From NCBI GenBank assembly GCA_963793265.1, contig CAWBZI010000006.1, forward strand, positions 416,001 to 480,000: a stretch of DNA of 64,000 bases, written 5' to 3'. Each line of letters begins with the position of its first letter. Within the stretch, counting starts at the first letter, position 1. The notes under the pieces were generated by a model. That model had not been told where the DNA came from. It ran no database searches and saw only the letters and a program-made list of their open reading frames with translations. Made by a program: the position numbers and the translations under genes. Origin of the DNA: an uncultured cyanobacterium (GTDB lineage Bacteria > Cyanobacteriota > Cyanobacteriia > Phormidesmidales > Phormidesmidaceae). Of this stretch, positions 4,715 to 49,051 are shown one piece after another.

Positions 4715-5107
4715 TGGAGCTGACGGGAGTCGAACCCGTGTCCGCTTCAAGTAATCACGTATCGCTCATTCACAGGTATAGCCTTTCTAACCCTCAAGGC
4801 GGGAGTTTTCCATTATCCCGGAAACAGGATGCTTCGATGAAAGTCTTAGCTGACACGCCCATCGAAGGAAGTTTGCCAGCGCATCCGTTGGGGGTTTAGT
4901 CCGAGCTGATTAACGGAGTCACAGCTACAGACGCTCGAACCTATAAGAGGTTTTTAGGCGGCAGCTACAAGAGCGCGCTTACGAGCAAAAGGTACGATGT
5001 CGTTTGCATGTATCTTTAAGTTTGAGCCTTTATTTACAAGAGTGGGCTCACTCTTGACCTGAATCACAATACGACTTTCGTTAAAACGTCGAAACCGTTT
5101 CAGCCCC
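4715..5107 (-). ncRNA. ssrA: tmRNA (transfer-messenger RNA)
   Basis: Minus strand begins GGGGCTGAAACGGTTTCGAC and ends GGACACGGGTTCGACTCCCGTCAGCTCCA; internal tag frame reads ANDIVPFARKRALVAAA-stop. Confidence 0.97.
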
Positions 5108-30304: not shown

Positions 30305-30480
30305 TTCCGTAGAATCCTATCTTTTTGACTACTCCCCGGACTGAAGGCGCGGGGATTCCCTGGTCAGTGACATAACTTTCAGATCCAACGTTACCGTCAA
30401 ACCTAAAGAGGTCGTATCTCACAGGGCGTTCTCCTTGTCTAGCAAGGTCGTTCCTGTGTGCCCCACAGTACGAAGTGCTT
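30305..30480 (-). ncRNA. Putative omegaRNA (reRNA) of TnpB with flank-derived guide
   Basis: Inferred from known TnpB biology: the scaffold spans the tnpB 3' end to the right-end TCAA, and the guide is the adjacent flank AAAGATAGGATTCTACGGAA. The 5' boundary is approximate. Confidence 0.6.
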
Positions 30481-31699
30481 TATTCAAAATATTGATAGCT
30501 GCATTCTCATCTCTATCTAGCTTGCACCCACACTTGCAGGCATGAGTCCTGGTAGAGAGGGACTTTTTCACTATCGTTCCGCAGCTAGAACATTCTTGTG
30601 ATGTATAGGCCGGGTCAACGGCAACCGTCACCCGACCAAATATATCGCCGTAGCGTTCTAGCCACGTTCTGAACTGATACCAACCCGCATCAGCAATCGA
30701 CTTAGCCAAGTTGTGATTCTTGACCATATTTCGGATTCTCAAGTCTTCGTACGCTACGAGGTCGTTAGATCTCATCACGGACAACGCTAATTTAACAGCG
30801 TGGTCTTTTCGCTTGCGTGAAGTTGTGAGGTCGAATCGTGCTAGTCGATTAATCGCTTTCTTGCGGTTGGCAGATCCTTTCTTCTTTCTAGAAACGCGCC
30901 TAGCCAGCTTTTTACGCTTAGCCTCACGCTTTCTATAGAATCTGGGGTTGTCTTCTTTATCACCATTGGAATCAGTGTAGAAGTCAGCTAGGCCAACGTC
31001 TAAACCGATTGTGTTACCAGATGGCTCTAGCGTCTCTTTTCTATCCACAGCAACGCAGAACTGGCAGTAGTAGCCGTCTGCGCGACGAATCAGTCTCACT
31101 CGCTTAATCAGCTTTTCAGCATAGTTTGCTAAGTCATGAGTGCCCACCAACTTCAAAAGGCCAATGCCTTTCTTGTCGGTGAAGGTAATTCGCTTAGGCG
31201 CTGTCAGCTTCCAGCCAGAAGTCTTGTACTCGACTGAGCGAGCAAACTTTTTGAACTTTGGATAACCAACTGGCTTAATGCCCTGCTTGCAGTTTTCGTA
31301 GAACCGACTAATTGCAGACCAAGCCCGCTCAGCGTGAGCCTGCCTAGCCATGCTGTTGAGTTCATTCGCAAAAGGAAACTCCTTAGCCAACTGCTTACAC
31401 AGCTTGCTCAAGTCGTATTTAGACGTACCTTTAACATCCATCCACAAACGCAAAGCTTTGTTCTGAACAAACTGCCCAGTCCTGATAGCTTCGTCTATTG
31501 CGGCAAACTGTTGAGGCTTTGCCTTGACCTTGTACTCTAGAATCAACATGTTCTTACGCTAATACAATGAGCGTAAAGTTAGGGCTAAGCACCTATGAAT
31601 ACTGGATGTTCGCTACACTCACCTGGGAGACTCGCGAGCTACATCCCCGTGCTGAAGCACCGGGCTTTGCCTGCGTTCTCCCAAACCCTCTTAGATTCG
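30325..31699 (-). mobile_element. IS200/IS605-family element carrying tnpB only (IS1341-like)
   Basis: Minus strand: TTAC target (31703-31700), left hairpin AAAG-CCCGGTGCTTCAGCACGGGG, tnpB, right hairpin GAAT-CCCCGCGCCTTCAGTCCGGGG, ending in TCAA at 30325. Confidence 0.85.
30419..31549 (-). CDS. tnpB: RNA-guided endonuclease TnpB
   Basis: RuvC IGLDVG / AYEDL / DRDENAA; Zn finger TSQECSSCG...CKCG. Confidence 0.95.
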   Translation of the reverse strand: MLILEYKVKAKPQQFAAIDEAIRTGQFVQNKALRLWMDVKGTSKYDLSKLCKQLAKEFPFANELNSMARQAHAERAWSAISRFYENCKQGIKPVGYPKFKKFARSVEYKTSGWKLTAPKRITFTDKKGIGLLKLVGTHDLANYAEKLIKRVRLIRRADGYYCQFCVAVDRKETLEPSGNTIGLDVGLADFYTDSNGDKEDNPRFYRKREAKRKKLARRVSRKKKGSANRKKAINRLARFDLTTSRKRKDHAVKLALSVMRSNDLVAYEDLRIRNMVKNHNLAKSIADAGWYQFRTWLERYGDIFGRVTVAVDPAYTSQECSSCGTIVKKSLSTRTHACKCGCKLDRDENAAINILNKALRTVGHTGTTLLDKENAL

Positions 31700-34130: not shown

Positions 34131-35456
34131 ATGCCGCTCGACTTACCCCGCTTTTATCGCGCTGCCAATCCTAGTCGTCCTTTAAAGGTAGCGCAGCCTG
34201 AAGACCGGCGGTATTACATTGATTTTTCTTCGGTAAGAGGGGGCGATATTGTCAGCGAGCTGGGGCGGACGGTTGTGCGGCTTTCGCCGGATGAGCCGAC
34301 AACGCAGCTATTTACCGGGCATATTGGCTGTGGTAAATCGACGGAGCTGTTTCGGCTAAAGGGCGGCCTAGAACAACAGAATTTTCATGTGGTTTATTTT
34401 GAGTCAGATCGGGACTTGGAAATGGCCGATGTGGATATTAGCGATATTTTGCTGATGATTGCCCATCAGGTGACAGAAAGTATGGAGGCGGTGGGCGTTC
34501 GGCTACGGCCTACGTACTTAGAGGCGCTGTTTAAGAATTTGTTGGAAGCGCTGCGATCGCCCCTAGAAATCAGTGACGTTAGCTTCTCAGTCGGCATTGC
34601 TGCGATTACCGCCCGCGCTAAAGAAAGCCCCGAAATGCGTAGTCAGCTCAGACAGTATCTAGAACCGCGCACTAAGGGCATTATTGACGCTATTAATGAA
34701 GAAATTTTGGAAGCGGCCAACGCTCAGCTCAAAGAGCAGGGCAAAAATGGCCTGGTGGTGATCGTCGATAATTTGGATCGCATTGATCCAATTAGCCGGG
34801 CGAACGGGCGCAGTCAGTCGGAATATTTATTTATCGATCGAGGCGAGCAGCTAAAGCGGCTGAACGCGCATGTGGTGTATACGATTCCGCTGGCGCTAAT
34901 TTTTTCGGACGAGCTGCCGCGTTTGGCCAATCGGTTTGGCACGTCACCAAAGCTGCTGGCGATGGTGCCAGTAAGTACGCGGACGGGAGAACCACTGCCG
35001 AGGGGGCGATCGCTCCTGCAAAAAATGGTGATGGCTCGCGCTTTTCCGACGCTCAAAGAAAGCGATCGCTGGCAGCAAATTAATCAGGTGTTCGACACGC
35101 CCGACACGCTGATGCGCCTGGTTGCAATTAGCGGCGGGCACATGCGAAACCTGATGCGCCTACTGTACGGCTGTTTGCAAAAAGGCGATCCGCCGATTCG
35201 TAAAGAAACGCTAGAAGCCGTCATTCGTGATGAACGCGACGCGCTAATGAGCCTGATTGACGCAACTGATTGGGCGCTGCTATTTGAGGCGATTAGTATG
35301 GGTGACGAACAGGGCAACGCCGGTTACAATCCGCTCTTGCGCAGCTTGTTTTTGTATGAATATCGAGATGCAGAAGGGCGCTGGTTTGGGCTAAATCCGG
35401 TGCTGGCAGAGACGAATCGCTACCGGCAGTGGCAGGCCAATCGAGGCGAGCGTTAG
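34131..35456 (+). CDS. AAA+/P-loop ATPase partnered with the downstream STAND-WD40 gene
   Basis: Walker A GHIGCGKST, Walker B VIVDNLDR, SGGH.R sensor, W...NP C-terminus. Confidence 0.88.
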   Translation: MPLDLPRFYRAANPSRPLKVAQPEDRRYYIDFSSVRGGDIVSELGRTVVRLSPDEPTTQLFTGHIGCGKSTELFRLKGGLEQQNFHVVYFESDRDLEMADVDISDILLMIAHQVTESMEAVGVRLRPTYLEALFKNLLEALRSPLEISDVSFSVGIAAITARAKESPEMRSQLRQYLEPRTKGIIDAINEEILEAANAQLKEQGKNGLVVIVDNLDRIDPISRANGRSQSEYLFIDRGEQLKRLNAHVVYTIPLALIFSDELPRLANRFGTSPKLLAMVPVSTRTGEPLPRGRSLLQKMVMARAFPTLKESDRWQQINQVFDTPDTLMRLVAISGGHMRNLMRLLYGCLQKGDPPIRKETLEAVIRDERDALMSLIDATDWALLFEAISMGDEQGNAGYNPLLRSLFLYEYRDAEGRWFGLNPVLAETNRYRQWQANRGER

Positions 35457-35532
35457 ATAGGGTGATAGCCGGAGCGATAGAATACAGACGCGCCCCGCCC
35501 ACCGCTCCTAGATATACATGGGCTAGAGAGAT

Positions 35533-38500
35533 ATGGTCACTGAGCAGCATCTAGATATTGTCACCTACAACAAAAACGCACTCAACAACCTCCGACGGGC
35601 TGTGGTCTTAGGTCAGGGGCAGTTTTCGCTGGTGCTCGCGCGGGTGAACTATCAGCAGCTTCGAGAGATTCTGATTGAGGAACTAAGCGAGCAGTTGCAG
35701 CTCAGCATCGTGCCTTTACCCCCAACGACGACGCGGCTAAGAGCAGCGATCGCAACCGCCCTCGAAACGGATCTCCCCGCCGCCGTCCGTTCTATCGGTC
35801 AAAACCCGCCAGCCCAGGCGATCATGGTCACTGGTCTAGAAGACATTCACCCCGTTCAGCTCGAAGACTTGTTGAAAGCTGCGAACTTAGGCCGAGATGA
35901 TTTGCCTAAAACCTTCGAGACGCCCGTGGTGCTATGGGTGAACGACACCCTTTTGCAACAGCTCAACCGCTTCGCCCCTGATCTCAAAAGCTTCGCCGCT
36001 ACGCCGATTCGATTTGAATATCCGGTGGGCTCACTAATTGATGTTTTGGCAGAGCAGGCCGCTGAAACCTTTGCAAGGGTTTTGAATGGTACCCATGAGC
36101 TGGGCAACCGATTCAACACGTATGTGCCCGCACCGCTTTCTAGCGAGGAGCTGTCTTTTGCTTTAGCGCAGGTTGAAAGCCAAGAACAGTTAGTTAGTGA
36201 CGATTTGCTCGCTGATTTGTTGTTTTTGCAGGGGCGAAATCTACATCAGCAGAGCGAGCCTATTGTTAATTTAGAGCGGGCGCGCAGCTACTACGAAAGC
36301 AGCCTGGCCTATTGGAAGCAGCAGAGATCGCGAGATAAACAGGCCGTTTTGCACTTTCATTTGGGCATGTGGTGGCGTAGCTATGCGCTGAAAACGACGC
36401 GGCCTGAGGAAGCAGACTACACTGCATTTTGTGAGCGATCGCGAGATTATTTTGAGGCCATGCTGACTATTTTTCGTCAGCAGAACCAGCGCGTTCGCCT
36501 GGCCCACTTCATTTTAGTCCTAGCAGAAATCTTGCAGCGGCTCAAAAGCTGGCCTGCACTCTCAGCGATCGCACAAGAAGCCGTAAACCTGCATCAGTCT
36601 CCAGCCGATGCAATCTACCTGGCTCGCGACTATGGCTACCTGGCCGAAGTCGCCCTGGCCCACTACGAAGCCGACCCCCATCCTGACTACTTGAGTGAAG
36701 CCGCAGGGTACGCGCAGCAGGCGATTGACATCGCTGATGCGCTGTTAGAACAATCGCTTGTAGAGAAAAGCAGCGATCGCAGAACAGCAGGCACAAACCT
36801 GCTGACGCTCTCTCACGCACATACCCAACAAAGCGAGGATAAAAGCAACAGTTGGCACGAACAAAACGTACTCCGATATCACCGAGCCTGCTACCTATAC
36901 TTGCTTGCTACCGCGCAACAGCAGCAGCACCAAATAACCCCTGCGCTTGAAAACTTAGAGAAAGCGCGTCAGGCCACAAACGCCCGCACCGATCTCACGC
37001 TCTATCGCCAAATCTTAGACCGTTTATGGCACCTTTACTATGAGCATAAGCACTACGCTCAAGCCTTTGAAGTCAAGCTGGCCCAGCGGCGTATAGAAAG
37101 TCTTTTTGGGCTGAGGGCATTTATTGGGGCGGGTCAGCTTCGGCCAGCCAGAGCCAGCGATCCTATTTTGACCGCTGAGATTAAAGCCTCAGGAAGAGAA
37201 CAAGATATTGAGGCGGTAGCGAATCGACTTTCGCAGCCACGCTACCCGGTCGTCGTGATTCACGGTCAGTCAGGTGTAGGCAAAAGTTCTACGATTTGCG
37301 CGGGGCTAATTCCTCGCCTCAGAAAGCTAATCAGTGAAGGTCGCACAACCTGTCCTGCGTTGGTTAAGAGCTATAGCCGCTGGCCGGAGCAACTAGAGCT
37401 TGCACTCACGCCAGGGAATCGGGCGAGTGATAGTTTGGCGGCTGATGATACTGACGTAGATCGGCCTTCATCGCAATATCTGATAGAGAAAATCGAAGCG
37501 CTGACGCGTCAGAAGTATCAACAGATTGTCTTGATTTTCGATCAGTTTGAAGACTTTTTTTATGAGTATCCTGTGATTGAGCAGCGGCGAGACTTTTATG
37601 CCTTTTTGCGCGACTGTCTCAATCTACCTTATGTGAAAGTTGTGCTCTCACTCAGAGAAGACTTTTTGCACTACTTATTAGAGTGGGATCGCAATGCAGA
37701 TCTGAGCATTATTGACAATGACATTTTGAGCAAAGAGATTCGCTATTACATTGGCAACTTTATGCCTAAGGCGGCTGAAATGGTGATTCGGCAGCTTACT
37801 CAGGCGGCAGGCTTTTACTTAGAAGATGGACTGGTTACAGCGCTGGTAGACGATTTAGCGGCTGATACGGGAGAGGTGCGTCCGATTGAGTTGCAGGTGG
37901 TGGGCGCGCAGCTACAAAGAGAGAAGATTACGAGCTTGGAGGCGTACCGGCAGTTGGGGCGATCGCCTAAAAGTCAGCTTCTCAAAAACTTTCTAGATAA
38001 CGTCATCCACGACTGCGGCCCTGAAAATAGCGTTGTGGCCCAGTCCGTACTTTATCTGCTGAGTGAAGGCGAAGGTCGCCCGCTCAAAAGCCATTCAGAG
38101 ATAGAAGAGGCGCTGACCTTTGCAGATATTGCCAGCGAACCGCAACAGCTTCAGCTCGTGTTGGATATTCTGATTGGCTCGGGTCTTATTTTTGAGGTGC
38201 CTGAAGTGTCGGGTGTGCGCTATCAGCTTGTGCATGAATATTTGGCGAGCCTGGTACAGCAGCAGCCACCTTCAGGGCTTAACGGGCTGATGGAAGCGTT
38301 GCAAACTGAGCGCAGTCGTAGAGAACAGAGTGAAACGCAGCTTGAAGCCGTTTTGGCGAATCAGTCGGCGGTGACATCGGCGTCTTTGCAGCAAACGGCG
38401 CTGGCCAAGGAGAAAGCTCAGATCGCAGAGATTAGAGGGCTGGTGTCGGTGGCACGCTCAATGCGGCTGTCAGGGAATGGGCTCGGGGCGATCGCGAAAG

Positions 38501-40500
38501 CCCTTCGCGCAGCGCAGCAGGTGCTAGACCATCAAAGCGACCATGCGCTGCTGAAAATGCAGGTGGCCCTGTGCCTTCACGCCTGCCTAAAAGAAATTAG
38601 AGAGAAAAACGAACTTTGCGATCATAACAACTGGGTGCTGGCGGTGGATTGCGGTTTGAGTGCGATCGCCTCAGCGAGCGATGACGGTACGATTAAACTA
38701 TGGAGCCTCAATGGAGAACTTCAGCGCACCCTGACAGAGCATCAGGCAGGCGTGTTAGACGTTCGCTTTAGCCCAGACGGACAATATCTCGCCAGCGCTA
38801 GCCTGGATCACACCATTCGCCTATGGCACACTAACGGCGACTTTTTGTGCACCCTAGAAACGCCCTCAGCCAGCGTCACGAGCATTGCCTTTAGCCCGAC
38901 AGAACCTTTGATAGCCGCCGCTTACAGCGATTCTCATATCCGCCTATGGAACTATCTAGACGGTGAGTTAGTACGCACGCTAAAAGGACATGAAGACTGG
39001 GCGAGAACGGTGGCCTTTAGCCCGGATGGAGAGCGGCTCGCTACGGGCAGCGAAGATCAGACAGTGAGAATATGGCACGTAGATGGTGAGCTGTTGCACG
39101 TGTTGCGAGGGCATCAGGGGTGGGTGAGAACGGTGGCCTTTAGCCCGGATGGAAAGCTGTTGCTTTCGGCGGGAGACACAAATACGCTGCGGCTGTGGAG
39201 TGCGGAAGGCCGTAAGCTAAAAACGCTTTATGGGCATGAGGACTGGGTGCGCAGTGTGGCCTTTAGCCCGGATGGTCAAAGCATTGCCTCGGGCAGTGAC
39301 GATCAAACAATCAGGGTTTGGGGGATTGAGGGTACGGTACAACAAACCTTTCATCAAAGGAGTAGTGTGCACAGTATTGCCTGGAGCGCTGATGGCGGCT
39401 CGATTGTATCGGGGGGTGATGACGATCGGGTGCATATTTGGCAGCTAGCCGGGCCACCGGAGACGATTTGTCGGGCGCATTCGGGGATTGTGTGGAGCGG
39501 TCGCTGGCAAAGTGCGATCGCTGATGAGCCCCGGAAAGTATTGTCGGCGGGTGGTGACGGCACCATCAAAATTTGGAGCGCACAAGCAGAGTTGTTGAAA
39601 TCCATCGACGGCCATCGGCGCGGGGTGCACAGCGTTGCTTGGAGCCCGAAAGGAGACTTTTTTGCCTCGGCCAGTGCTGATTTGACGGTGAGGGTTTGGA
39701 CTGAGGATGGGGGGTTTGTGCGATCGCTGACCGGGCATGAGGCGTCTGTGTGGCAGGTGGGCTATAGCCCTGATGGCAGTCGGATAGCGTCGGTAAGTAG
39801 CGATCGCACCCTGCGCCTGTGGCACCCCAAAGGCAAACTCATCAAAACCTACGAGGGCCACACCGATACCATTTGGCACGTCAGCTTTAGCCCCAATTCT
39901 GAGCATCTCATTACTGCTAGCGAAGACAATACTTTGCGCCTGTGGCATCGCAAGAAGGGATTGGTGCAAACGCTTACCGGCCACGATGGCGGCGTTTGGT
40001 GCGCTATCTTTAGTCCGAACGGTCAGTTTTTGGCCTCTGGTGGCGCTGATGGTGTAATTCGCCTGTGGACGGTGAGCTGGCTGGGTCAGCAGCAGATTCG
40101 GATAGAGCCGAATCCTTTGCAGCTTAAGGGGCATCGCGACTGGGTGCGCAGCCTTAGATTTAGTCCGAATGGTGAGTTTTTGGCGTCTGCGAGTGACGAT
40201 GGGACTGTGCGGCTGTGGTCGCTATTGCCAAAGACCGTGGCGGCTCCTGGATTTGCGGCGCTGAGCGCTGATGATATTACTGAGAATAGTCAGCTTTTGC
40301 CACCGTTGATAGGGCATGAGGGCGTGATTTGGGAGGTAGATTTTGATGCGGCTGGTGAGCGGCTGGTGACGGCGAGTGCGGATGGTACGGTGAGGATTTG
40401 GGATCTGCGGCTGGGGGCGCTGATAGGGAAGGGATGTGAGTGGTTGGAGGATTGGCTGGTGGCGCGGCCTGAGGTGAGGGAGCAGCTTTGTGGGAAGTGA
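35533..40500 (+). CDS. NLR-like protein: degenerate NTPase-like N-domain, TPR, STAND NTPase, ~14 WD40 repeats
   Basis: PVVLWV...FAPD N-domain, TPR helices, GQSGVGKSS, IFDQFED, SLREDF, YQLVHEYL, many GH..WV..VAFSPDG...D.T.RLW repeats. Confidence 0.9.
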   Translation: MVTEQHLDIVTYNKNALNNLRRAVVLGQGQFSLVLARVNYQQLREILIEELSEQLQLSIVPLPPTTTRLRAAIATALETDLPAAVRSIGQNPPAQAIMVTGLEDIHPVQLEDLLKAANLGRDDLPKTFETPVVLWVNDTLLQQLNRFAPDLKSFAATPIRFEYPVGSLIDVLAEQAAETFARVLNGTHELGNRFNTYVPAPLSSEELSFALAQVESQEQLVSDDLLADLLFLQGRNLHQQSEPIVNLERARSYYESSLAYWKQQRSRDKQAVLHFHLGMWWRSYALKTTRPEEADYTAFCERSRDYFEAMLTIFRQQNQRVRLAHFILVLAEILQRLKSWPALSAIAQEAVNLHQSPADAIYLARDYGYLAEVALAHYEADPHPDYLSEAAGYAQQAIDIADALLEQSLVEKSSDRRTAGTNLLTLSHAHTQQSEDKSNSWHEQNVLRYHRACYLYLLATAQQQQHQITPALENLEKARQATNARTDLTLYRQILDRLWHLYYEHKHYAQAFEVKLAQRRIESLFGLRAFIGAGQLRPARASDPILTAEIKASGREQDIEAVANRLSQPRYPVVVIHGQSGVGKSSTICAGLIPRLRKLISEGRTTCPALVKSYSRWPEQLELALTPGNRASDSLAADDTDVDRPSSQYLIEKIEALTRQKYQQIVLIFDQFEDFFYEYPVIEQRRDFYAFLRDCLNLPYVKVVLSLREDFLHYLLEWDRNADLSIIDNDILSKEIRYYIGNFMPKAAEMVIRQLTQAAGFYLEDGLVTALVDDLAADTGEVRPIELQVVGAQLQREKITSLEAYRQLGRSPKSQLLKNFLDNVIHDCGPENSVVAQSVLYLLSEGEGRPLKSHSEIEEALTFADIASEPQQLQLVLDILIGSGLIFEVPEVSGVRYQLVHEYLASLVQQQPPSGLNGLMEALQTERSRREQSETQLEAVLANQSAVTSASLQQTALAKEKAQIAEIRGLVSVARSMRLSGNGLGAIAKALRAAQQVLDHQSDHALLKMQVALCLHACLKEIREKNELCDHNNWVLAVDCGLSAIASASDDGTIKLWSLNGELQRTLTEHQAGVLDVRFSPDGQYLASASLDHTIRLWHTNGDFLCTLETPSASVTSIAFSPTEPLIAAAYSDSHIRLWNYLDGELVRTLKGHEDWARTVAFSPDGERLATGSEDQTVRIWHVDGELLHVLRGHQGWVRTVAFSPDGKLLLSAGDTNTLRLWSAEGRKLKTLYGHEDWVRSVAFSPDGQSIASGSDDQTIRVWGIEGTVQQTFHQRSSVHSIAWSADGGSIVSGGDDDRVHIWQLAGPPETICRAHSGIVWSGRWQSAIADEPRKVLSAGGDGTIKIWSAQAELLKSIDGHRRGVHSVAWSPKGDFFASASADLTVRVWTEDGGFVRSLTGHEASVWQVGYSPDGSRIASVSSDRTLRLWHPKGKLIKTYEGHTDTIWHVSFSPNSEHLITASEDNTLRLWHRKKGLVQTLTGHDGGVWCAIFSPNGQFLASGGADGVIRLWTVSWLGQQQIRIEPNPLQLKGHRDWVRSLRFSPNGEFLASASDDGTVRLWSLLPKTVAAPGFAALSADDITENSQLLPPLIGHEGVIWEVDFDAAGERLVTASADGTVRIWDLRLGALIGKGCEWLEDWLVARPEVREQLCGK

Positions 40501-40713
40501 ATTGCTTGCGGGCGGGGGCGTTTTTTGGCAAAGTGAAGCGAGTGCGAATTTCCTGGGAGGTTTGCCAAAACGTCAGAACCTTGACAATTCAATAGTTTTG
40601 AGGTTTTCTGTGCAGGGGCAAGGTGTTATTAGGCCGTCGTTTTTTATGAAAATTACGACCTTTGCCAAAACCTGTGTTGAAGGCCAGCGATATCAGCTAC
40701 TCTAGAGGGCGGC
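40501..40713 (+). promoter_or_regulatory. CRISPR leader
   Basis: Non-coding, directly before repeat 1. TTTGCCAAAA at 40561 and 40661, plus the inverted copy TTTTGGCAAA at 40523. Confidence 0.8.
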
Positions 40714-41486
40714 GACGCCAAACCCAAATCCCGACTTTCGGGACTGAAACCACTCATTCTTTTAGGTCTGCTGCTATTTACGAACAGACGCCAAACCCAA
40801 ATCCCGACTTTCGGGACTGAAACCAACCGGCTAGCTGAGTCAACCAATGCTGCTGCGCCTGCTGGGACGCCAAACCCAAATCCCGACTTTCGGGACTGAA
40901 ACGCAGCGTCTGTGCCGTGGATAAACTCAAACGAACAGGACGCCAAACCCAAATCCCGACTTTCGGGACTGAAACTCGTCGGGGTCTATGCAGGCTTTCG
41001 CCGCTATCGCCGACGCCAAACCCAAATCCCGACTTTCGGGACTGAAACTTGTCAAAAGCATTTAGAGAATAGATAACCCAGTCTTCAGGACGCCAAACCC
41101 AAATCCCGACTTTCGGGACTGAAACCGGCAGCAGGGCGATCACCTCTCTCAGGCCATCTAGACGCCAAACCCAAATCCCGACTTTCGGGACTGAAACCCT
41201 GACACTGCATCAGCGAGTGGCCCCAAGTCGACGCCAAACCCAAATCCCGACTTTCGGGACTGAAACAAATCTTCGTAGGCCACCTTAACAGCGGCCTGCA
41301 TTAGGACGCCAAACCCAAATCCCGACTTTCGGGACTGAAACGAGAGCATTTATTACCTATGACGGCAGATTTGATAGACGCCAAACCCAAATCCCGACTT
41401 TCGGGACTGAAACTACCCCTGGGTCATTCCCTGACGGATATAAGCCGGGGACGCCAAACCCAAATCCCGACTTTCGGGACTGAAAC
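40714..41486 (+). CRISPR. CRISPR array, 11 identical 37-bp repeats and 10 spacers (32-42 bp), type I-D-like, no cas operon in the window
   Basis: Repeat GACGCCAAACCCAAATCCCGACTTTCGGGACTGAAAC at 40714, 40787, 40866, 40939, 41012, 41089, 41161, 41230, 41305, 41377, 41450. The TCCCG..CGGGA hairpin and CTGAAAC 3' end resemble the Synechocystis I-D repeat. Confidence 0.98.
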
Positions 41487-41582
41487 ACTCAGGAGATCTC
41501 AGGACACAAAAGCTTGCAGGAGCTACAGCACTACTTAGAAGTGTTGCCTGAGCAGGTTGAGGATGAGATCGCACCATTATGA
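41487..41582 (+). pseudogene. C-terminal remnant of a tyrosine recombinase/integrase
   Basis: Reads TQEISGHKSLQELQHYLEVLPEQVEDEIAPL-stop, matching the GH...Y catalytic box of cyanobacterial integrases. No start codon or 5' part. Confidence 0.75.
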
Positions 41583-41677
41583 ATCTTATTTCAGGCTTGA
41601 CTTTACATAAGGTAGGCCAAGCAGCCTAGTCCACGCCACAAAATGTATTAGGATATCAGACACATCAAACACATAAG

Positions 41678-42607
41678 ATGAATCAACTATCGCACGTAGA
41701 GCCCAGAGCCGAAATCAAAGAGGTTAAAGGGGCACAAGGATCGGGAGGGGCTCAGCTCTACTTCAACCATCGCAACGGAAAGCTGTTCCAAGGCGATTCA
41801 GTTAGTTGGTTGTCATCCCTTGAATCTGAATCCGTAAACCTGATTTTTGCTGATCCTCCCTATAACCTTAAGAAAGCTGAGTGGGACAGTTTTGAAAGCC
41901 AAGAAGAATATATTGCTTGGTCAATGAGATGGATAGAGCAGGCCGCAAGGGTTCTTAAAGCTGATGGCACACTCTATATATGTGGCTTCTCTGAAATTCT
42001 GGCAGATATTAAGCATCCTGCAATGAAACTATTTAAGTCTTGTCGGTGGATAGTTTGGCACTACAAAAATAAAGCTAACCTCGGCAGCGATTGGGGGCGA
42101 TCGCACGAAAGCCTACTGCATCTTAGAAAACAGAAGAAAGTCAAGTTGAATATAGACGACGTTCGTATTCCTTACGGTGCACATACTCTGAAATATCCAT
42201 CGCACCCTCAGGCTGAGACAAGTCAGTATAGTAAAGGAAAAAAGCGTAAGAGCGAGTGGATTCCCCATCCAAAAGGTGCGAAGCCTAAAGATGTGATTGA
42301 TGTTCCTACTACCTGTAATGGAATGTATGAATCGACACCCCATCCTACTCAAAAACCCGAGGAGCTAGTAAGAAAGTTTGTACTCGCCTCGTCAAATAAG
42401 GGGGATGTTGTTCTAGATCCATTCTCCGGATCTGGAACGACCCTAGTGGTAGCAGAACAGCTAGGCCGCAAATGGTTAGGCTGTGATCTTGAGGAAGAAT
42501 ACAATGCATGGGCTGTAGGTCGGCTCAAAGAAGTCCGAAAGATGAGTGTTGACGAATGGATTGCTCATGATCGTAAGACATCTGAGCGACGGGAGAAAAT
42601 TCGTTGA
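41678..42607 (+). CDS. Site-specific DNA amino-methyltransferase (m4C/m6A, beta class)
   Basis: Motif IV FADPPYN, HPTQKPE, motif I VLDPFSGSGTT. Confidence 0.93.
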   Translation: MNQLSHVEPRAEIKEVKGAQGSGGAQLYFNHRNGKLFQGDSVSWLSSLESESVNLIFADPPYNLKKAEWDSFESQEEYIAWSMRWIEQAARVLKADGTLYICGFSEILADIKHPAMKLFKSCRWIVWHYKNKANLGSDWGRSHESLLHLRKQKKVKLNIDDVRIPYGAHTLKYPSHPQAETSQYSKGKKRKSEWIPHPKGAKPKDVIDVPTTCNGMYESTPHPTQKPEELVRKFVLASSNKGDVVLDPFSGSGTTLVVAEQLGRKWLGCDLEEEYNAWAVGRLKEVRKMSVDEWIAHDRKTSERREKIR

Positions 42608-43506
42608 ATATAGAGGAACTAGCCGTTATCGCTGTCGATAAAGAAAACTTTTTATCCATCGAAAACTTTATTGAGTTTAGCAAGCAGTACCTAGAGTTCT
42701 CAGCAGAAGGTCTACAGGCTGTGATCGTCTCTCAGAACGAAAACCACTACAGGTTTTATCAATACAAGCAAGGAGGTTATTTCAACATTACACGTCCTCT
42801 TAATTCACGTCTGATGTATGACATTAGCGAACAGGAAAAGCTTGATGAGTTCCTACATATCTTGGGCGAGGTTAGGGATATACCTAAAGACGATTCTGAA
42901 AAAAGAGACACTATAGTCCGTGTAATTTACACCTTGCAGCAGTGTATTGGAGCAGCGCTTGACGCCCTTCCTTCAGGTGCATCTAATAGAGCGCGGAAAG
43001 TCAACGGCGATTTGTTTGAGCGCCTTATTCAACTACTAATAAGGCGAGTTGGCATTACGTGTAAGACAGGAACTATAAAAATCCCCGTCGAGGTCGATGG
43101 TGAGATTCAATTTCACATGAACTATCAACACGATCTTTTAATTCACAATAACGAGGAACTGAAGGTCATTGGATCAGTCAAAACATCCAGCAAAGACCGC
43201 ATTGACAAGATATTCTTGGATAAATTTCTATACTCAAAAATAACGGAAACATCTCTACCCCATATTGCTATATTCCTCAACGATGTTCAGAGAAAAAAGA
43301 CGGCTAAGCAAGATAGATACGGCGTAAGTGCCACCTTCTTACCAGGGCACTTCAAAGGATTCACTGTCAAACTTAATCCTCTAGATGGAGTGTATTACTG
43401 TGATATCAGACCGAATATGCGCACAGAGCCGATATTAAAAGATCATATTCGGACAATCGACCACTTCTTTTGTTCTGATTTGTGGGATCTAATTCAAAAC
43501 ACTTAG
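42604..43506 (+). CDS. Putative type II restriction endonuclease (PD-(D/E)xK fold)
   Basis: Overlaps the MTase stop; AT-rich; R..NGDLFE, QHD, SVKTSSKDR motifs. Confidence 0.7.
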   Translation: MNIEELAVIAVDKENFLSIENFIEFSKQYLEFSAEGLQAVIVSQNENHYRFYQYKQGGYFNITRPLNSRLMYDISEQEKLDEFLHILGEVRDIPKDDSEKRDTIVRVIYTLQQCIGAALDALPSGASNRARKVNGDLFERLIQLLIRRVGITCKTGTIKIPVEVDGEIQFHMNYQHDLLIHNNEELKVIGSVKTSSKDRIDKIFLDKFLYSKITETSLPHIAIFLNDVQRKKTAKQDRYGVSATFLPGHFKGFTVKLNPLDGVYYCDIRPNMRTEPILKDHIRTIDHFFCSDLWDLIQNT

Positions 43507-43525
43507 CCCTTAAAAACCAGACTAT

Positions 43526-43756
43526 CTACTGAAGCTTCTTCACCCTCCATGCTGTCTCAGCCCCGTTCCTGCCAGCCTTAACGAAATTAAACCCAAGGTT
43601 TTCTTCCTCGCTACTACCCCCCAGTGCCTTTGGAATAATATGCTCAATTTCCAGCGTCCCCCAAACATACCGCTGAAGACTCAAGCAATAGCCACAGCGG
43701 TCACCGGCTTGTTGTCGAATACGAGCTTTGAGTTCGGCAGCAATATAATCGCTCAC
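43526..43756 (-). pseudogene. HNH endonuclease, truncated
   Basis: RCGYC...LEIEHIIP...GGS..EENL, then unrelated sequence; the expected C..CN half is missing. Confidence 0.75.
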
Positions 43757-44145
43757 GAATTCAACGGCTCCATCAGTCCCCTTTTCACCGCCTCGACGAT
43801 GGCTGCAGTTTTGCGTAGCCAGCCCTCGTTATAAATCTGCATCAAGGCTTCTAACGCTTGCCTTTCATCTCCAACCAACGCACACTCACGTTGTTTCTCC
43901 AACAATTCAGAGAGTTGTTGATCCTACGTTTCTGGCAGGGCGGAATTAGCCAAATCAAGAACAGCGTAATCAGACATTTCTGATACAGATGGAAGGGCAT
44001 CAATTTCTTCGCTCAGTGGCGGCAACGAGGAAACAACCGTCTCTGATAAGACGCTCGATAAGTCACGGTTGATAAGACGTGCAAACCGCTCCGCCCTCTG
44101 ATACGTTTCTTCCGGCAGGTCAATTGTGACTTGAATCGTGCTCAT
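43753..44145 (-). pseudogene. Antitoxin-like partner of the HNH gene, interrupted by an in-frame TAG at 43926-43924
   Basis: The frame continues past TAG as DQQLSELLEKQRECALVGDERQALEALMQIYNEGWLRKTAAIVEAVKRGLMEPLNS to a TGA overlapping the HNH GTG. Confidence 0.75.
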
Positions 44146-44214
44146 AGCAAGCCGCTCATTTATCGAGTGTCCAGTTTGTTTTCAGTTTACCGCAGTGCAC
44201 AGGATCTACTCTAT

Positions 44215-44520
44215 CTACTCTATTCGCTGAGCCACCGTCAAGATCGCCATCACTTCACCCAGCCTACCCGTACTCAGCAGCCGACTCCAATCATTCGGCT
44301 CAGCGTAGCCCAACTGATGCAGCCGCAAAATCGCCGCCTTCACACCCTTAGGCGAGCCAAACACCATATGGCGCACCTGCTCGCGATCGCCACCACCACC
44401 TCCACGCCCCGGATCCAACGGCAGCCCAGCCGATGCCGTCAGCGGTAAAGCCTGCGGTGAAGAGGGTAGAGCACCCGAAACAGTAGACGCATCAGCGCCT
44501 GATAAAGAAAGCGTAGTCAT
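44215..44520 (-). CDS. Small conserved cyanobacterial protein (GS...I..LH.LGYAE..DWS family)
   Basis: ATG at 44520 (MTTLSL) preferred; conserved-looking C-domain REQVRHMVFGSPKGV...LHQLGYAEPNDWS...GEVMAIL. Confidence 0.7.
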   Translation of the reverse strand: MTTLSLSGADASTVSGALPSSPQALPLTASAGLPLDPGRGGGGGDREQVRHMVFGSPKGVKAAILRLHQLGYAEPNDWSRLLSTGRLGEVMAILTVAQRIE

Positions 44521-44609
44521 GAGATTCTGGCTCCCGAGTATGTTTTGCTTGGAGGAAACCAGAACCCAAAAAACCAAAGCAACGCCACAAAGAGCCGCAA
44601 AGCGCGGGA

Positions 44610-44712
44610 CAAATCGGAGTCGCTAAGGTATCCTGCCCTTAGCTGTCAGACTGGTCGTTTCAGTTTGATAGCTAGCGATTCGGTAGGTGGTGAGACACCT
44701 GCCGGATCGTGC
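44610..44712. ncRNA. Putative structured RNA (leader or antisense) upstream of the small gene
   Basis: Hairpins GCTAAGG-N8-CCTTAGC and CGATTCGGTAGGTG-GTGAGA-CACCTGCCGGATCG (14 bp with two G-U pairs on the + strand). Confidence 0.45.
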
Positions 44713-44834
44713 GTCAGTCAGTTGAGTTCTGTAAGAACAGGCATGTGATAGGCATCACACAACCCTAGTAAATGACGATAAACCCTTTCTCGTGTGGCGT
44801 CAAGCAAAAAACTAGCCCTCAAGCACGTCTGAGG

Positions 44835-45251
44835 CTACCGACCGCTCGATTTGTCTGAAGCTGATCGCGTCGGCGCAGCGATATCGCGCGTGTTTTTTTG
44901 AACCGCGATCGCCCCAAACAAGCTCAGCAAAAACGCCATAATATAAAATCCCTTTTCGCTCAACAGCAAATCAGCATTCCACAGGCCCACAAAAAGCAAC
45001 AGCACGCACAAAATCACCGACGCCCAGGCCATCCCATAATAAAGGTCTGTCACCTTAATTCCTTCTTCTTTATCCCGCACGCTCTTTTGCAACGAAACTG
45101 TCGAGAACAAAGCGTACATTAATAGAACAAAATAGAATCCCTTTTCGTTTAGCTGCATTCCGGCATTCCAAAGCCCTGTAAAGAAAGCAACCATACCAGC
45201 CGACAAAGCCACGTACGACGCCCCAATAAAAGCAGGTGTGGGTTTACTCAT
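44835..45251 (-). CDS. yiaA: Inner membrane protein YiaA
   Basis: Two YiaAB repeats: GLWNA.M.LNEKGFY...QKSVRD and [13 protein letters not shown]...QKNTRD; ATG 45251. Confidence 0.9.
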
Positions 45252-45584
45252 TAAAATTCTCCTAATATACGGCAAGCTGAAGGACTTATCGACAAAACAA
45301 CATATAAACCGCTCAGCCAAATCCATCTCGCCAGCTTACCCACATTATATTCATCAACCCACACTGATATTTCAGACGCGATCGCCCCCTTCCCTTGTAA
45401 AGTTACATTGCTAAACGTCTGTAAAACAGCAGCACTTTCCGGTATCTCCCCCGTACAAACACAGTTCTTATTCAGCGCAATATTACATTGATTATTTTTG
45501 ATAATTGATGCGGGTAGGCTGTGAAAAAGTTGACGGGTAGGCCCACAGGCCGAACCACAAGCCGCTATATCTTGAGGCGCAACC

Positions 45585-46247
45585 ATGCATTACGAAATCC
45601 GCTATAAGCCAGCCTTTGCCACCCTGTTTTTGACTCTAAAGCCAGGCGAGCGCATCTACGCCGAAGCTGGAGCCATGGCCAGCATGGCCGGACATCTTGC
45701 CATGAAGACCCAGTTTTTTGGTGGCCTCGTCCCCGGCCTACTCAAAGCCTTTCTCGGCGGCGAGTCCTTATTTATCAATCTCTTTTCTAACCCTACAGGC
45801 GAACCCAAAGAGCTAGTCCTCACCCAGTCCAGCGTTGGCGACATCACCACCATTAACCTCAGCGGCAACGAACTTTGCCTGCAGCCCGGCGCTTACATCG
45901 CCCACACGCCCGGCGTAAACGTAAGCCTGCAATGGGCAGGGCTGGCAAGCTGGTTCTCAGGCGAAGGACTCTTCAAGCTCAAGCTCAGCGGCACGGGCAT
46001 GGTCTTTTTTGGCGCGTACGGCGGGCTCTCTGAAGTGATGGTAAAAGACGAATTTACAGTAGATACCGGCCATCTCGTCGCCTACGAGCCCGGCATCAAA
46101 ATGAGCGTTGCCCTATCAGGCGGACTCGTCGGCTCAGTTACCTCGGGCGAAGGCTTTATCAACAAGCTGCAAGGGCGCGGCAAAATCTACCTTCAGTCAC
46201 GCAGCGTTGATGGACTTGCTAGATTTTTACGGCCTCGGCTTCGGTAG
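45585..46247 (+). CDS. AIM24 family protein (TIGR00266)
   Basis: AEAGAM, GGESLFIN, GEGLF, VDTGHLVA. Confidence 0.9.
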   Translation: MHYEIRYKPAFATLFLTLKPGERIYAEAGAMASMAGHLAMKTQFFGGLVPGLLKAFLGGESLFINLFSNPTGEPKELVLTQSSVGDITTINLSGNELCLQPGAYIAHTPGVNVSLQWAGLASWFSGEGLFKLKLSGTGMVFFGAYGGLSEVMVKDEFTVDTGHLVAYEPGIKMSVALSGGLVGSVTSGEGFINKLQGRGKIYLQSRSVDGLARFLRPRLR

Positions 46248-46267
46248 TTAATTAAGGAGACACTAAA

Positions 46268-46945
46268 GTGAAAATTGAACTGTTACATCAGCCGGATAGT
46301 GCGATCGCTAAAATCAGCATGAAGCCTCGAGAAGAGATAGTCGCTGAGGCCGGGGCGATGATCGCCATGAGCGCCTACATGAACGTTAGCACCACGCTCA
46401 AACGCGGCAAAGGTGGCGGCGTGATGGGCGGGCTCAAGCGGATGCTGGCCGGAGAATCGCTATTTATGAGCGTGTTTCGGTCGGGCAACAGCGATGCTGA
46501 AATCTATTTGGCCCCTAAGCTTATGGGAGACATTCTTCCCTATCAGCTCACCGGCACCGAACTGGTGGTGCAGTCTACCGGCTACATGGCCAGCACTCCT
46601 GGCGTCACGATTGACTTAGGCTTTACTGGTTTCAAAAGTCTCTTTTCAGGAGAGTCTTTATTTTGGCTGAGCGTCAGCGGCGCAGGCTCGGTATTGCTCA
46701 GCTCATTCGGCAGCATTTACGAAGTGGATGTCGATGGTGAGTATGTTGTCGATACGGGTCATATTGTTGCATTTGAGCGATCGCTAGACTACAAAATCAG
46801 CAAAGGCAACAATAGCTGGGCAGGCGCGTTCTTTGGCGGTGAAGGCTTTGTGTGTAGGTTTCACGGTAAAGGCAAAGTCTTTTGCCAGACGCATAATCCG
46901 GGTGCCTTTGGGCGATTGGTGGGTGGTAAGCTGCCGCCTCGATAG
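46268..46945 (+). CDS. AIM24 family protein (TIGR00266)
   Basis: AEAGAM, AGESLF, VDTGHIVAF, GGEGFV. Confidence 0.9.
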   Translation: MKIELLHQPDSAIAKISMKPREEIVAEAGAMIAMSAYMNVSTTLKRGKGGGVMGGLKRMLAGESLFMSVFRSGNSDAEIYLAPKLMGDILPYQLTGTELVVQSTGYMASTPGVTIDLGFTGFKSLFSGESLFWLSVSGAGSVLLSSFGSIYEVDVDGEYVVDTGHIVAFERSLDYKISKGNNSWAGAFFGGEGFVCRFHGKGKVFCQTHNPGAFGRLVGGKLPPR

Positions 46946-46974
46946 TAGAGACGGGTTATTAGCCTACACACCGG

Positions 46975-47018
46975 AACCCATCCCGTCCCTGCGGGCCACC
47001 CCTCCCGAAAGGGGATTT
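46975..47018. repeat. REP-like double-hairpin element
   Basis: ACCCATCCCGTCCCTGCGGGCCACCCCTCCCGAAAGGGGATTT between AIM24 genes 2 and 3; only one copy seen in this window. Confidence 0.4.
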
Positions 47019-47077
47019 GCTTCAGGCTGGGGCGTTAGAAGAGATCCTGTTTTGAATTGAGCGGAGACAACTATTTC

Positions 47078-47773
47078 ATGAGTGCTGAAATTAGATACGA
47101 TATTGAACATAAGCCTGCTTATGCTTCGCTGAAGCTGGGGCTAAATGCGAATCAGACTGTAATGGTAGAAGCGGGCGCGATGGCCGCGATGGATAGCTGT
47201 ATTACGATGAGATCTAAGGCCAAAGGTGGCTTTAAGAAAGGGCTGGGTCGCATGTTAGGCGGCGAATCTCTCTTTGTGAGTGAGTTTACAGCCGAAGGGA
47301 AATCTGGCGATATATATGTATCTCCTGGCGTGCCTGGTGACATTCAGCACTACGTTTTAGACGGTTCTACTAACTTGATGGTGCAATCGTCAGGTTTTGT
47401 TGCATCCGGGCCGAATGTGGTGATTGATAGTAAGTTTCAGGGATTCAAAGGTTTCTTTAGCGGTGAGTCACTGTTTTTGCTTAGGGTGACAGGTACAGGA
47501 GACTTTTGGTTTAGCTCATTTGGCGCTGTACTCGAAATTCCGGTAGACGGCCATTATGTGGTGGATACTGGCTACATTGTCGCCTTTGAAGATACGCTTA
47601 ACTACGAAGTTGAAGTGATGGGCGGCCTCTCTTTCAAAAGCCTGAAAACTAGCATTTTGGGCGGTGAGGGATTGGTCACGCGCTTTAGCGGCAAAGGTAA
47701 GCTTTGGGTTCAATCTCGTAACCTGTACTCCTTTGTCAACTTCATCAATCCGTTCCGTCCTGTTAAGAGCTAG
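47078..47773 (+). CDS. AIM24 family protein (TIGR00266)
   Basis: VEAGAM, GGESLF, VDTGYIVAF, GGEGLV; ATG 47078 preferred over 47057. Confidence 0.9.
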   Translation: MSAEIRYDIEHKPAYASLKLGLNANQTVMVEAGAMAAMDSCITMRSKAKGGFKKGLGRMLGGESLFVSEFTAEGKSGDIYVSPGVPGDIQHYVLDGSTNLMVQSSGFVASGPNVVIDSKFQGFKGFFSGESLFLLRVTGTGDFWFSSFGAVLEIPVDGHYVVDTGYIVAFEDTLNYEVEVMGGLSFKSLKTSILGGEGLVTRFSGKGKLWVQSRNLYSFVNFINPFRPVKS

Positions 47774-47797
47774 CGCTTAGTTGTTGGTTAAAAAAGA

Positions 47798-48646
47798 ATG
47801 GCTATAGAACTTCCCGAAGGTACAGCGGCTTATTCTGAAGATACCCCACCGCCTAAAAACAGCCAGTTGCTCACGCTGCTGGGTTTGTTTTTGTGTGGAC
47901 TTCTTGGCGCGATCACTCTGGCCATCTGGTTCTCTAACGCCCTCGTCTGGTTCATTCCCCCAGCGGTAGAACAGCAGCTAGGGAGAGCCATCGTACCTAT
48001 ATACCAGAGGCAGGCCCAACCTTCAGCTACTCAAGATGAACTCAACCTCTTGCTCGATAGATTAGAGACTGAGCTTCCTGCTGAACAAACCGAAGGGAGA
48101 GACTATCAGGTTTTTTATGTGCCCGAAGATACGGTGAACGCGCTGGCGATTCCGGGCGATCGCATTGTCATCTACAAAGGACTATTGGCCGAAGTAGAGT
48201 CTGAAAACGAGCTAATGATGATCTTAGGTCATGAGCTGGGCCACTTTGCCAATCGCGATCATCTGCGGGGGCTAACCCGGCAGGTGCTGGTTCGGCTGGT
48301 GTTGGCTTCGATGTTAGGAGATGCTGGATCGGTGGGGGCGATCGCAACCAACAGCGCTTCGGCTCTCACCAACGCTCAATTCTCTCAAACCCAAGAAAAA
48401 CAGGCTGATGAAATTGGCCTTCAGCTCCTAAAAGCCACCTACGGCCACGCCGCCGGAGCCACCGACTTCTTCAGCCGCCTGATTACAGAAGACCTACCAG
48501 CCGGGCTATCTATCCTCGCTAGCCACCCGCCCTCAAAAGCTCGCGTAGAAAACATCAAGCGCATCATTGAGAATAAAAACTACCCTATCGAAGGGAAAAC
48601 GGATCTGCCTTCAGCACTAGAGATATCGAAGTCTGACCGTGAGTAG
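47798..48646 (+). CDS. M48 family zinc metallopeptidase
   Basis: NALAIPG, HELGH, FSQ.QE..AD, SHP; N-terminal TM. Confidence 0.9.
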   Translation: MAIELPEGTAAYSEDTPPPKNSQLLTLLGLFLCGLLGAITLAIWFSNALVWFIPPAVEQQLGRAIVPIYQRQAQPSATQDELNLLLDRLETELPAEQTEGRDYQVFYVPEDTVNALAIPGDRIVIYKGLLAEVESENELMMILGHELGHFANRDHLRGLTRQVLVRLVLASMLGDAGSVGAIATNSASALTNAQFSQTQEKQADEIGLQLLKATYGHAAGATDFFSRLITEDLPAGLSILASHPPSKARVENIKRIIENKNYPIEGKTDLPSALEISKSDRE

Positions 48647-48721: not shown

Positions 48722-49051
48722 ATGTATTCAGTAAACATACAGGAAATTGAGAACACAGATAATCAAAAACTCATCAGTGTCGCGAGTCTTTGGGAAATAG
48801 CTATCAAAGCTAGCATCGGCAAACTAGAGATTGGAATGTCACTGACAGACCTTGTTGAAAAGCAAGTGCTAGGCAATGCATTCGGTATGCTTGCTATTAC
48901 GCCTGAGCATCTTAATGAGCTTGCAACCCTACCTTTCCATCATAAAGATCCGTTTGACCAACTTATTATTGCGCAAAGCATGGCTGAAGATATTTCTGTT
49001 ATCTCTAAAGACAAAGCATTTAGAGACTACACAGCTCAGCTAATCTGGTAA
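48722..49051 (+). pseudogene. VapC/PIN toxin lacking its N-terminus, fused to an antitoxin-like start
   Basis: SVASLWEIAIK..IGKL and HHKDPFD.LIIAQ are VapC motifs; the first catalytic LLDTH motif is absent and replaced by MYSVNIQE. Confidence 0.7.

Follow-up and report, generated by a model that had tools for sequence, protein, structure and literature searches.

The DNA analyzed here (the window) is a stretch of 64,000 nucleotides, C6:416001-480000, on one of the 7 contigs of a 5.68-Mb genome. It contains a CRISPR array whose terminal repeat is followed, without intervening DNA, by the 3′ end of a tyrosine recombinase (integrase) gene. The array is flanked by an nSTAND-WD40 gene upstream and a DNA methylase gene downstream (Table 1). 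Its repeat unit is GACGCCAAACCCAAATCCCGACTTTCGGGACTGAAAC, with copies starting at positions 40714, 40787, 40866, 40939, 41012, 41089, 41161, 41230, 41305, 41377, and 41450; all 11 are identical and have the 3′ end GAAAC (as GGGACTGAAAC).

Table 1. Features in and around the array-integrase junction (positions are those of the window).
Feature	Position	Strand	Description
nSTAND1 NTPase/WD40-repeat gene	35533..40500	+	1655 amino acids; Pfam WD40 E 1.5e-142, nSTAND1 E 5.5e-32
CRISPR leader	40501..40713	+	213 bases; shares homology with the leaders of both type I-D arrays of contig C1
Orphan CRISPR array	40714..41486	+	11 identical 37-nt repeats and 10 unique spacers of 32–42 nt, reading 5′ to 3′ on this strand
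Repeat 11 (terminal)	41450..41486	+	Perfect copy, followed by no degenerate copy
Tyrosine recombinase gene remnant, small plasmid-type	41487..41582	+	Last 31 codons and stop
Putative former spacer	41487..41522	+	Left ~36 nt of the remnant; proposed from the 32–42-nt spacer lengths and GTN in 105/109 loci; right limit not visible in the sequence
Intergenic stretch	41583..41677	+	95 nt, GC 0.40
Type II DNA methyltransferase (N6/N4 class), predicted	41678..42607	+	309 amino acids; Pfam N6_N4_Mtase E 4.8e-52; PADLOC MTase_II E 7.7e-68
Type II restriction endonuclease, predicted	42604..43506	+	300 amino acids; PADLOC REase_II PDLC03436 E 5.3e-98; start overlaps the methylase stop
Short broken open reading frames	43526..44145	-	One with an HNH-like motif (..CGYC..EIEHIIP..); within the variable island
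First of three AIM24-family genes	45585..46247	+	Conserved right flank

A complete type I-D operon, encoding Cas10d (PADLOC, E = 0), Csc2/Cas7d, Csc1/Cas5d, Cas3′, Cas6, Cas4, and Cas1d, is located on contig C1 between the two other arrays of the genome (G000; C1:1145002-1146870 and C1:1159640-1163702), whose repeats and leaders are related to those of the window array. The three arrays thus share one operon and carry three repeat variants, distinguished in part by the paired stem changes CCCGACTTTCGGG, CCCGATTACCGGG, and CCCGATCATCGGG, and their leaders are conserved. The window repeat differs from that of the main array at 5 positions, paired changes in the hairpin stem included. With its identical hairpin repeats, the GAAAC 3′ end, unique spacers, a conserved leader, and a genomic Cas10d, the window array has the characteristics of a type I-D array, and it is an orphan array of the system encoded on contig C1.

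The two arrays on contig C1 both finish in degenerate repeats, unlike the window array, which has neither a degenerate end nor a trailer. No degenerate repeat was found in positions 41487-46000, where the best match had 17 mismatches over 37 positions, equal to the median of 50 shuffles. A search of Rfam with positions 40000-46000 gave no match, and no promoter-like or terminator-like sites were found in 40400-41800, the absence of a terminator being a weak observation.

The reading frame from position 41487, TQEISGHKSLQELQHYLEVLPEQVEDEIAPL-stop, is closed upstream by a TGA within the repeat, and retains the His of the 'SGH' motif and the catalytic Tyr of 'HYLEV'. A profile search (hmmscan) with the 31-residue peptide against Pfam and NCBIfam gave no integrase match at E ≤ 10, the peptide being of insufficient length for a direct match to PF00589. 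In tblastn, the peptide aligned to the extreme C-terminus of frames of approximately 180–200 amino acids in 38 of the order's 172 other genomes; across 29 loci of the order, E-values per genome were 5.5e-8 to 1e-3. A full-length relative (L004, 179 amino acids) matches PF00589 with an E-value of 4e-27 over profile positions 4–170 of 172. Among plasmids, the peptide matches 83 records (best E 7e-6, 7.3 Gb searched); all of these are from cyanobacteria, most carry the annotation 'site-specific integrase', and the remnant is 60–79% identical to these integrases across their last 28–30 residues, the SGH and Y motifs included. A phmmer search of 1.84 billion representatives returned a single unrelated-looking match of 1355 amino acids at 29% identity and was uninformative.

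In the relatives, the integrase gene is often located beside a divergent 70-amino-acid RHH-like gene or parA, and the family is therefore a plasmid-type recombinase and not a phage-type integrase with an arm-binding domain. The divergently transcribed 70-amino-acid gene (MK.PLVAGR.P..W...) is paired with the integrase in loci L004, L026, and L027, and parA adjoins it in L022 and in the Gloeocapsa sp. PCC 7428 plasmid pGLO7428.02. Unlike the PF00589 'site-specific integrase' genes of cyanobacterial plasmids, the window holds about one sixth of the gene. From the complete catalytic domain (Arg, Lys, His-x-x-Arg, His/Trp, Tyr) it keeps the last His and the Tyr only. It is a gene fragment, not a member of the family, and cannot encode a recombinase. 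Over all 7 contigs, tblastn with the 179-residue member found this tail only (E 4.7e-6; the rest had E > 3); the sole other PF00589 gene of the genome, on contig C7, is unrelated, and neither an RHH-partner gene nor an integrase N-terminus is present anywhere in the genome. The sequence GAGATCGC at positions 41565-41572 is replaced by a perfect HIP1 site (GCGATCGC) in one of six aligned relatives, and the genome contains 6884 HIP1 copies where approximately 87 are expected. A shorter integrase stump (..LQRYLEVLPEQVEDAISSL) occurs in another genome of the genus (G121; loci L030/L142), with no CRISPR adjacent and with DNA 82% identical to window positions 41526-41570.

These results bear out most of what the initial annotation had read from the sequence: a last repeat joined directly to the catalytic tail of an integrase, a perfect trailer repeat, a missing integrase 5′ part, and what looks like a decayed HIP1 site. 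The comparison with PF00589 that it proposed gave nothing as a direct profile search and succeeded by way of tblastn to the C-termini of PF00589-type genes.

The last base of repeat 11 is position 41486, and homology to the integrase family starts at 41487-41490. Across this point the window reads ..GGGACTGAAAC|ACT CAG GAG ATC.., against ..CGG GTG ATT CAG GAG AT.. in the relatives (six aligned). Upstream of the equivalent point the sequence of the relatives is unlike the repeat, and no in-register microhomology was seen between the repeat end and the integrase gene in the six alignments. The homology continues to position 41582, giving 96 nt in total against spacers of 32–42 nt; as it outruns the longest spacer by at least 54 nt, the integrase-derived stretch is more than a spacer.

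CRISPR repeats often break or mis-join assemblies, and the initial annotation had warned that the junction might be an artefact of this kind. Logan contigs from three runs in two studies, however, start at 41450 or 41457, as is usual for de Bruijn contigs where repeats occur, and so contain a full or near-full repeat 11, and cross into the tail and the methylase gene with 0–1 differences. Possibly one of the three runs represents the source sample; the second study is independent. A mis-join would moreover be expected between two arrays, not between an array and unique DNA. An assembly artefact is thus extremely improbable, and the junction is real.

Of 109 homologous integrase loci (29 in genomes of the order and 80 in metagenomes), 105 have a GTN codon, encoding the Val of the conserved L-R-V-I-Q-E-I-S-G-H, directly ahead of the position that corresponds to the junction (63 GTG, 25 GTA, 13 GTC, and 4 GTT). 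The junction codon itself encodes Ile in 105/109 loci and is ATT in 70/109, one transition away from the ACT of the window. The closest DNA relative, a 424-nt contig from run X2 with 39 of 45 bases identical, reads ..CTA CGC GTG AT|T CAG.. (upstream of the junction-equivalent point, ..CTACGCGTGAT|T). By chance, GTN precedes 3.6–6.0% of random positions in six homologous genes.

The protospacer adjacent motif (PAM) of type I-D systems is GTN, located upstream of the protospacer; as reported for Synechocystis, all four GTN variants license interference, and Cas4 enriches GTN at spacer acquisition (Kieper et al., 2018, PMC5896167). Two of the ten spacers of the window array could be assigned a target, both in contigs of run X3 with non-repeat flanks: spacer 1 (40751-40786) with a full-length match of 34/36 and spacer 5 (41049-41088) with one of 37/40. 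GTG precedes both (2/2 protospacers with a 5′ GTN); the other 8 spacers had no target match. The two protospacers suggest live targets of the orphan array in the same kind of habitat. Because GTN is the PAM, and the protospacers of this array are flanked by GTG, the integrase DNA begins at the very position, and has the orientation, expected of a type I-D spacer taken from that gene. The system of Kieper et al. (PMC5896167) resembles the present one in its Cas10d, Csc2, Csc1, Cas3′, Cas6, Cas4, and Cas1d, in the repeat end GGGACTGAAAC, and in the 5′-GTG at two protospacers; the window array differs in lying far from its cas operon, in having a repeat variant of its own, and in lacking a degenerate terminal repeat.

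The nSTAND1-WD40 gene forms the conserved left flank of a variable region, and its 3′ end is kept in many genomes of the genus. Between it and the AIM24 genes on the right lie 5.1 kb that contain the array, the integrase stump, the methylase-endonuclease pair, broken small open reading frames, and a YiaAB gene. In two congeners (G147 and G140), the WD40 and AIM24 genes are 160–180 bp apart. A third (G136) has the WD40 gene, an orthologous leader, and a 4-repeat array in one contiguous 72% alignment, contains no integrase or restriction-modification (R-M) genes at the site, and continues after the array with genes which in our genome sit on contig C2. As the array is orthologous in G136 and what follows it varies, the array predates the integrase and R-M DNA at this site.

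From the adjacency of matching families, the methylase and endonuclease are predicted to form a type II R-M pair. The GC content of the endonuclease gene is 0.40 and that of the pair 0.40–0.45, against 0.506 for the genome. Relatives with 58–68% identity over the full length occur in many phyla, and the methylase is directly upstream of the endonuclease in 80/80 loci. In 45 congeners, the DNA of the pair has no match besides one of 102 nt (E 4e-4), and nothing cyanobacterial was found among plasmids for the island (41583-45590). No R-M pair is present near the 109 integrase loci (within 1.5–4 kb), the 29 in genomes of the order included, and just 1 of the 80 R-M loci has a match to the integrase query within 6 kb, a weak one at 33% identity. 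The pair is a separately mobile unit.

One proposal of the initial annotation was that an R-M-bearing element had received the leader-array cassette in its integrase gene, either by insertion or by seeding of the array there. This is not supported, given the G136 array with neither integrase nor R-M genes and the lack of linkage between the two families; an intact integrase beside this R-M pair, which the annotation suggested seeking in relatives, did not turn up among the 109 integrase loci either. The other proposal of the annotation, a deletion ending at a repeat, fits the loss of the array end and of the integrase 5′ part, but the endpoint does not look random and coincides with the start of a PAM-flanked protospacer.

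We interpret the junction, with a probability of about 50%, as a recombination scar: a CRISPR spacer would have recombined homologously with its own protospacer, located within an integrase gene on a plasmid-like element. The mechanism is of a known kind; the example is new. In this scenario, the Cas4-Cas1-Cas2 proteins of the type I-D system on contig C1 would have acquired from a plasmid integrase gene a spacer starting right after the Val of ..L-R-V|I-Q-E-I-S-G-H... Later, the integrase gene would have been present as a copy close to the array and in direct orientation, or would have arrived on a plasmid. The approximately 36 bp of identity between spacer and protospacer could then have served as the crossover, so that repeat 11 was joined to the part of the gene starting at the protospacer. 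In cis, a single crossover would remove the far end of the array (its distal units, degenerate terminal repeat, and trailer) as well as the 5′ part of the integrase gene with its PAM, and would yield precisely the structure observed; in trans, a second event would be required. Loss of the PAM-flanked copy may have been selected, because it would end self-targeting by Cascade-Cas3. Genome remodelling by self-targeting type I systems was reportedly described by Vercoe et al. in 2013; such cases are like the scenario proposed here in that loss of a PAM-flanked chromosomal target would be selected, and unlike it in that no self-targeting spacer remains in our genome and we infer the selection step.

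Two features expected of such a scar are seen here: target DNA that runs from the repeat/spacer border past the length of a spacer and, in intact relatives of the source gene, the cognate PAM in the right orientation. The target is also of the expected kind, the integrase family being plasmid-borne (the 83 plasmid records above), and no member is left in the genome.

Several points weigh against the recombination between spacer and protospacer. The exactness of the junction is not independent evidence, since the exact border is what got the locus flagged in the course of a very large scan; independently of it there is one PAM coincidence (p ~0.05) plus the orientation. The first codon is ACT where the family has ATT, which limits the resolution of the junction to 3 nt and obliges the PAM argument to assume a T>C change. 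None of the 7 other C-terminal fragments of the integrase family adjoins an array, and their breakpoints differ; as array-free fragments occur, truncation of the integrase needs no CRISPR. Within the window, the distance between the array and any cas gene is 40+ kb, the cas operon being on contig C1. Neither a sister strain with repeat-spacer-repeat at this position nor the reciprocal product was found in four metagenome runs or the metagenome collection (sparse data), and every contig covering position 41487 runs on into the methylase gene. No donor element with a near-identical integrase gene was found, and the exact 27-mer of the tail had 0 matches in the metagenome contig collection.

To these may be added that none of the other 89 spacers convincingly matches the integrase loci: the 89 spacers and the pseudo-spacer gave short chance matches only against 215 fetched loci and the own genome. 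Against plasmids, the C6 array had no match, and the large C1 array showed only repeat similarity to a Picosynechococcus plasmid; the latter array had no match against phages. Two candidate matches were rejected. Spacer 14 of the large C1 array matches L148:2291-2314 at 23/24 positions, but the PAM-proximal 13 nt are unmatched and the flank is ATT, not GTN, so this was rejected as a protospacer; the match lies inside an open reading frame of 284 amino acids, in a metagenome contig on which a small integrase is encoded as well. A match in run X8 to positions 40848-40883 was judged spurious, as it has 5 mismatches, lies in GC-rich DNA, and crosses from the end of a spacer into the start of a repeat.

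A serious rival is an ordinary illegitimate deletion or rearrangement without any role for CRISPR, one endpoint happening to coincide with the border between repeat and spacer in unit 11, and the other following a Val codon in an integrase gene then located downstream in this variable hotspot. The site between the WD40 and AIM24 genes is a rearrangement hotspot, as seen in G147, G140, and G136, and broken copies of the integrase family are common without CRISPR, as the 7 further fragments with their differing breakpoints indicate. The selection of the locus from a very large scan for its exact junction also favors this explanation, as does the fact that the independent evidence for a CRISPR role amounts to one coincidence of about 1 in 20. 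On the other hand, a random endpoint would hit the border at about 1–4 of the 73 positions of a repeat-spacer unit, GTN precedes just 3.6–6.0% of the source positions, and the junction shows no microhomology. Chance deletion in a hotspot is therefore somewhat unlikely to our mind, but has to be taken seriously.

The same geometry, with an exact repeat border, a source beginning just after GTN, and the PAM-proximal end at the repeat, could also have been generated by aberrant activity of Cas1-Cas2(-Cas4), in which a long PAM-trimmed plasmid fragment was half-site-joined to a repeat border away from the leader and repair then lost the downstream array. Cas4, Cas1d, and the remaining I-D module are present in the genome, and Cas4-dependent selection of GTN has been documented (PMC5896167). 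Normal integration, however, is leader-proximal and duplicates the repeat, whereas the junction is at the distal end and has no second repeat, and an extra, unspecified repair step would be needed; we regard this route as unlikely. An event driven by the integrase itself is improbable. It would consist either of an element integrating into a CRISPR repeat, similar to PhiAP1.1, or of an array cassette inserted or seeded in an integrase gene; integration of a temperate phage in CRISPR repeats is known (10.1101/2020.10.09.333658), and the remnant is indeed an integrase. But the integrase is truncated, the sequence upstream in its relatives is unlike the repeat, and the array, orthologous in G136, is older than the insert. 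The duplication expected of an attachment (att) site is also lacking, the best candidate for a second full or partial repeat in 41487-46000 being at chance level (17/37 mismatches), and the differing breakpoints of the other fragments argue against a fixed att site in the integrase gene.

Recombination between spacer and target has been described in staphylococci (Varble 2019 and Watson 2018, as described in a review, PMC8616872). In that account, spacer-length homology acts as the crossover and fuses the array to the target at the repeat/spacer border, as proposed here; the staphylococcal cases, however, are laboratory events in Staphylococcus that create transducing phage particles. Here the product would be a scar fixed in the chromosome, within the type I-D orphan array of a cyanobacterium, with a plasmid-type integrase as the target and the distal array lost, and we infer the mechanism. 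A second parallel is the temperate phage PhiAP1.1, which integrates into CRISPR repeats of Streptococcus pyogenes (Varble et al., bioRxiv 10.1101/2020.10.09.333658) and likewise places mobile-element DNA and an integrase gene directly against a repeat. PhiAP1.1 reportedly splits the repeat on integration, with att copies and an intact integrase remaining; at our locus there is a whole repeat, no second copy, and a stump of 31 codons. Natural fixed products of spacer-target recombination are hardly documented, and a non-exhaustive full-text literature search turned up none for type I-D systems or cyanobacteria.

The footprint described here, foreign DNA starting at the exact edge of a repeat with the PAM of the system just before that point in intact relatives, can be scored across sequenced arrays. 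Should it be enriched, arrays would be recombination hotspots that lose memory and gain foreign genes, a possible gain in this case being the R-M system directly downstream; should it not be enriched, the locus would be a coincidence at a rearrangement hotspot. It is conceivable, though doubtful, that the spacer served as a landing pad for the capture of defence genes, with an R-M-bearing plasmid segment recombined into the array end through the 36-bp identity of spacer and protospacer. In such a scenario, the type I-D system would target the plasmid integrase gene, the addictive type II R-M system would kill cells that destroy the plasmid, and recombinants would survive. Beyond immune memory, arrays would then be homology anchors that turn targeted mobile DNA into chromosomal defence islands, and this role would be diagnosed from a PAM that precedes the junction in the source gene.

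Other features of the region were noted. An AAA-type ATPase gene precedes the nSTAND1-WD40 gene (together 34131-40500); if the R-M pair, the array, and a PIN-domain gene at 48722-49051 are counted in, the region is an apparent hotspot of defence genes, with content that varies between congeners. The run of short open reading frames at 43526-44145 looks like a broken gene pair, with intact-looking DNA relatives elsewhere in four congeners. It is followed by a segment of approximately 570 bp (44237-44805) that most genomes of the genus contain in many copies (66–83% identity), up to 8 per genome among the matches listed; the segment covers a minus-strand open reading frame of 120 amino acids without a Pfam or NCBIfam family. 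The three tandem AIM24-family paralogues and the M48 peptidase gene that follows them (45585-48646) are conserved as a unit in several congeners. Elsewhere in the window, we identified a TnpB-like gene (OrfB_IS605 and a Cas12f1-like TNB domain) at 30419-31549 on the minus strand, and a transfer-messenger RNA (tmRNA) gene at 4715-5107, also on the minus strand, with the tag peptide ANDIVPFARKRALVAAA.

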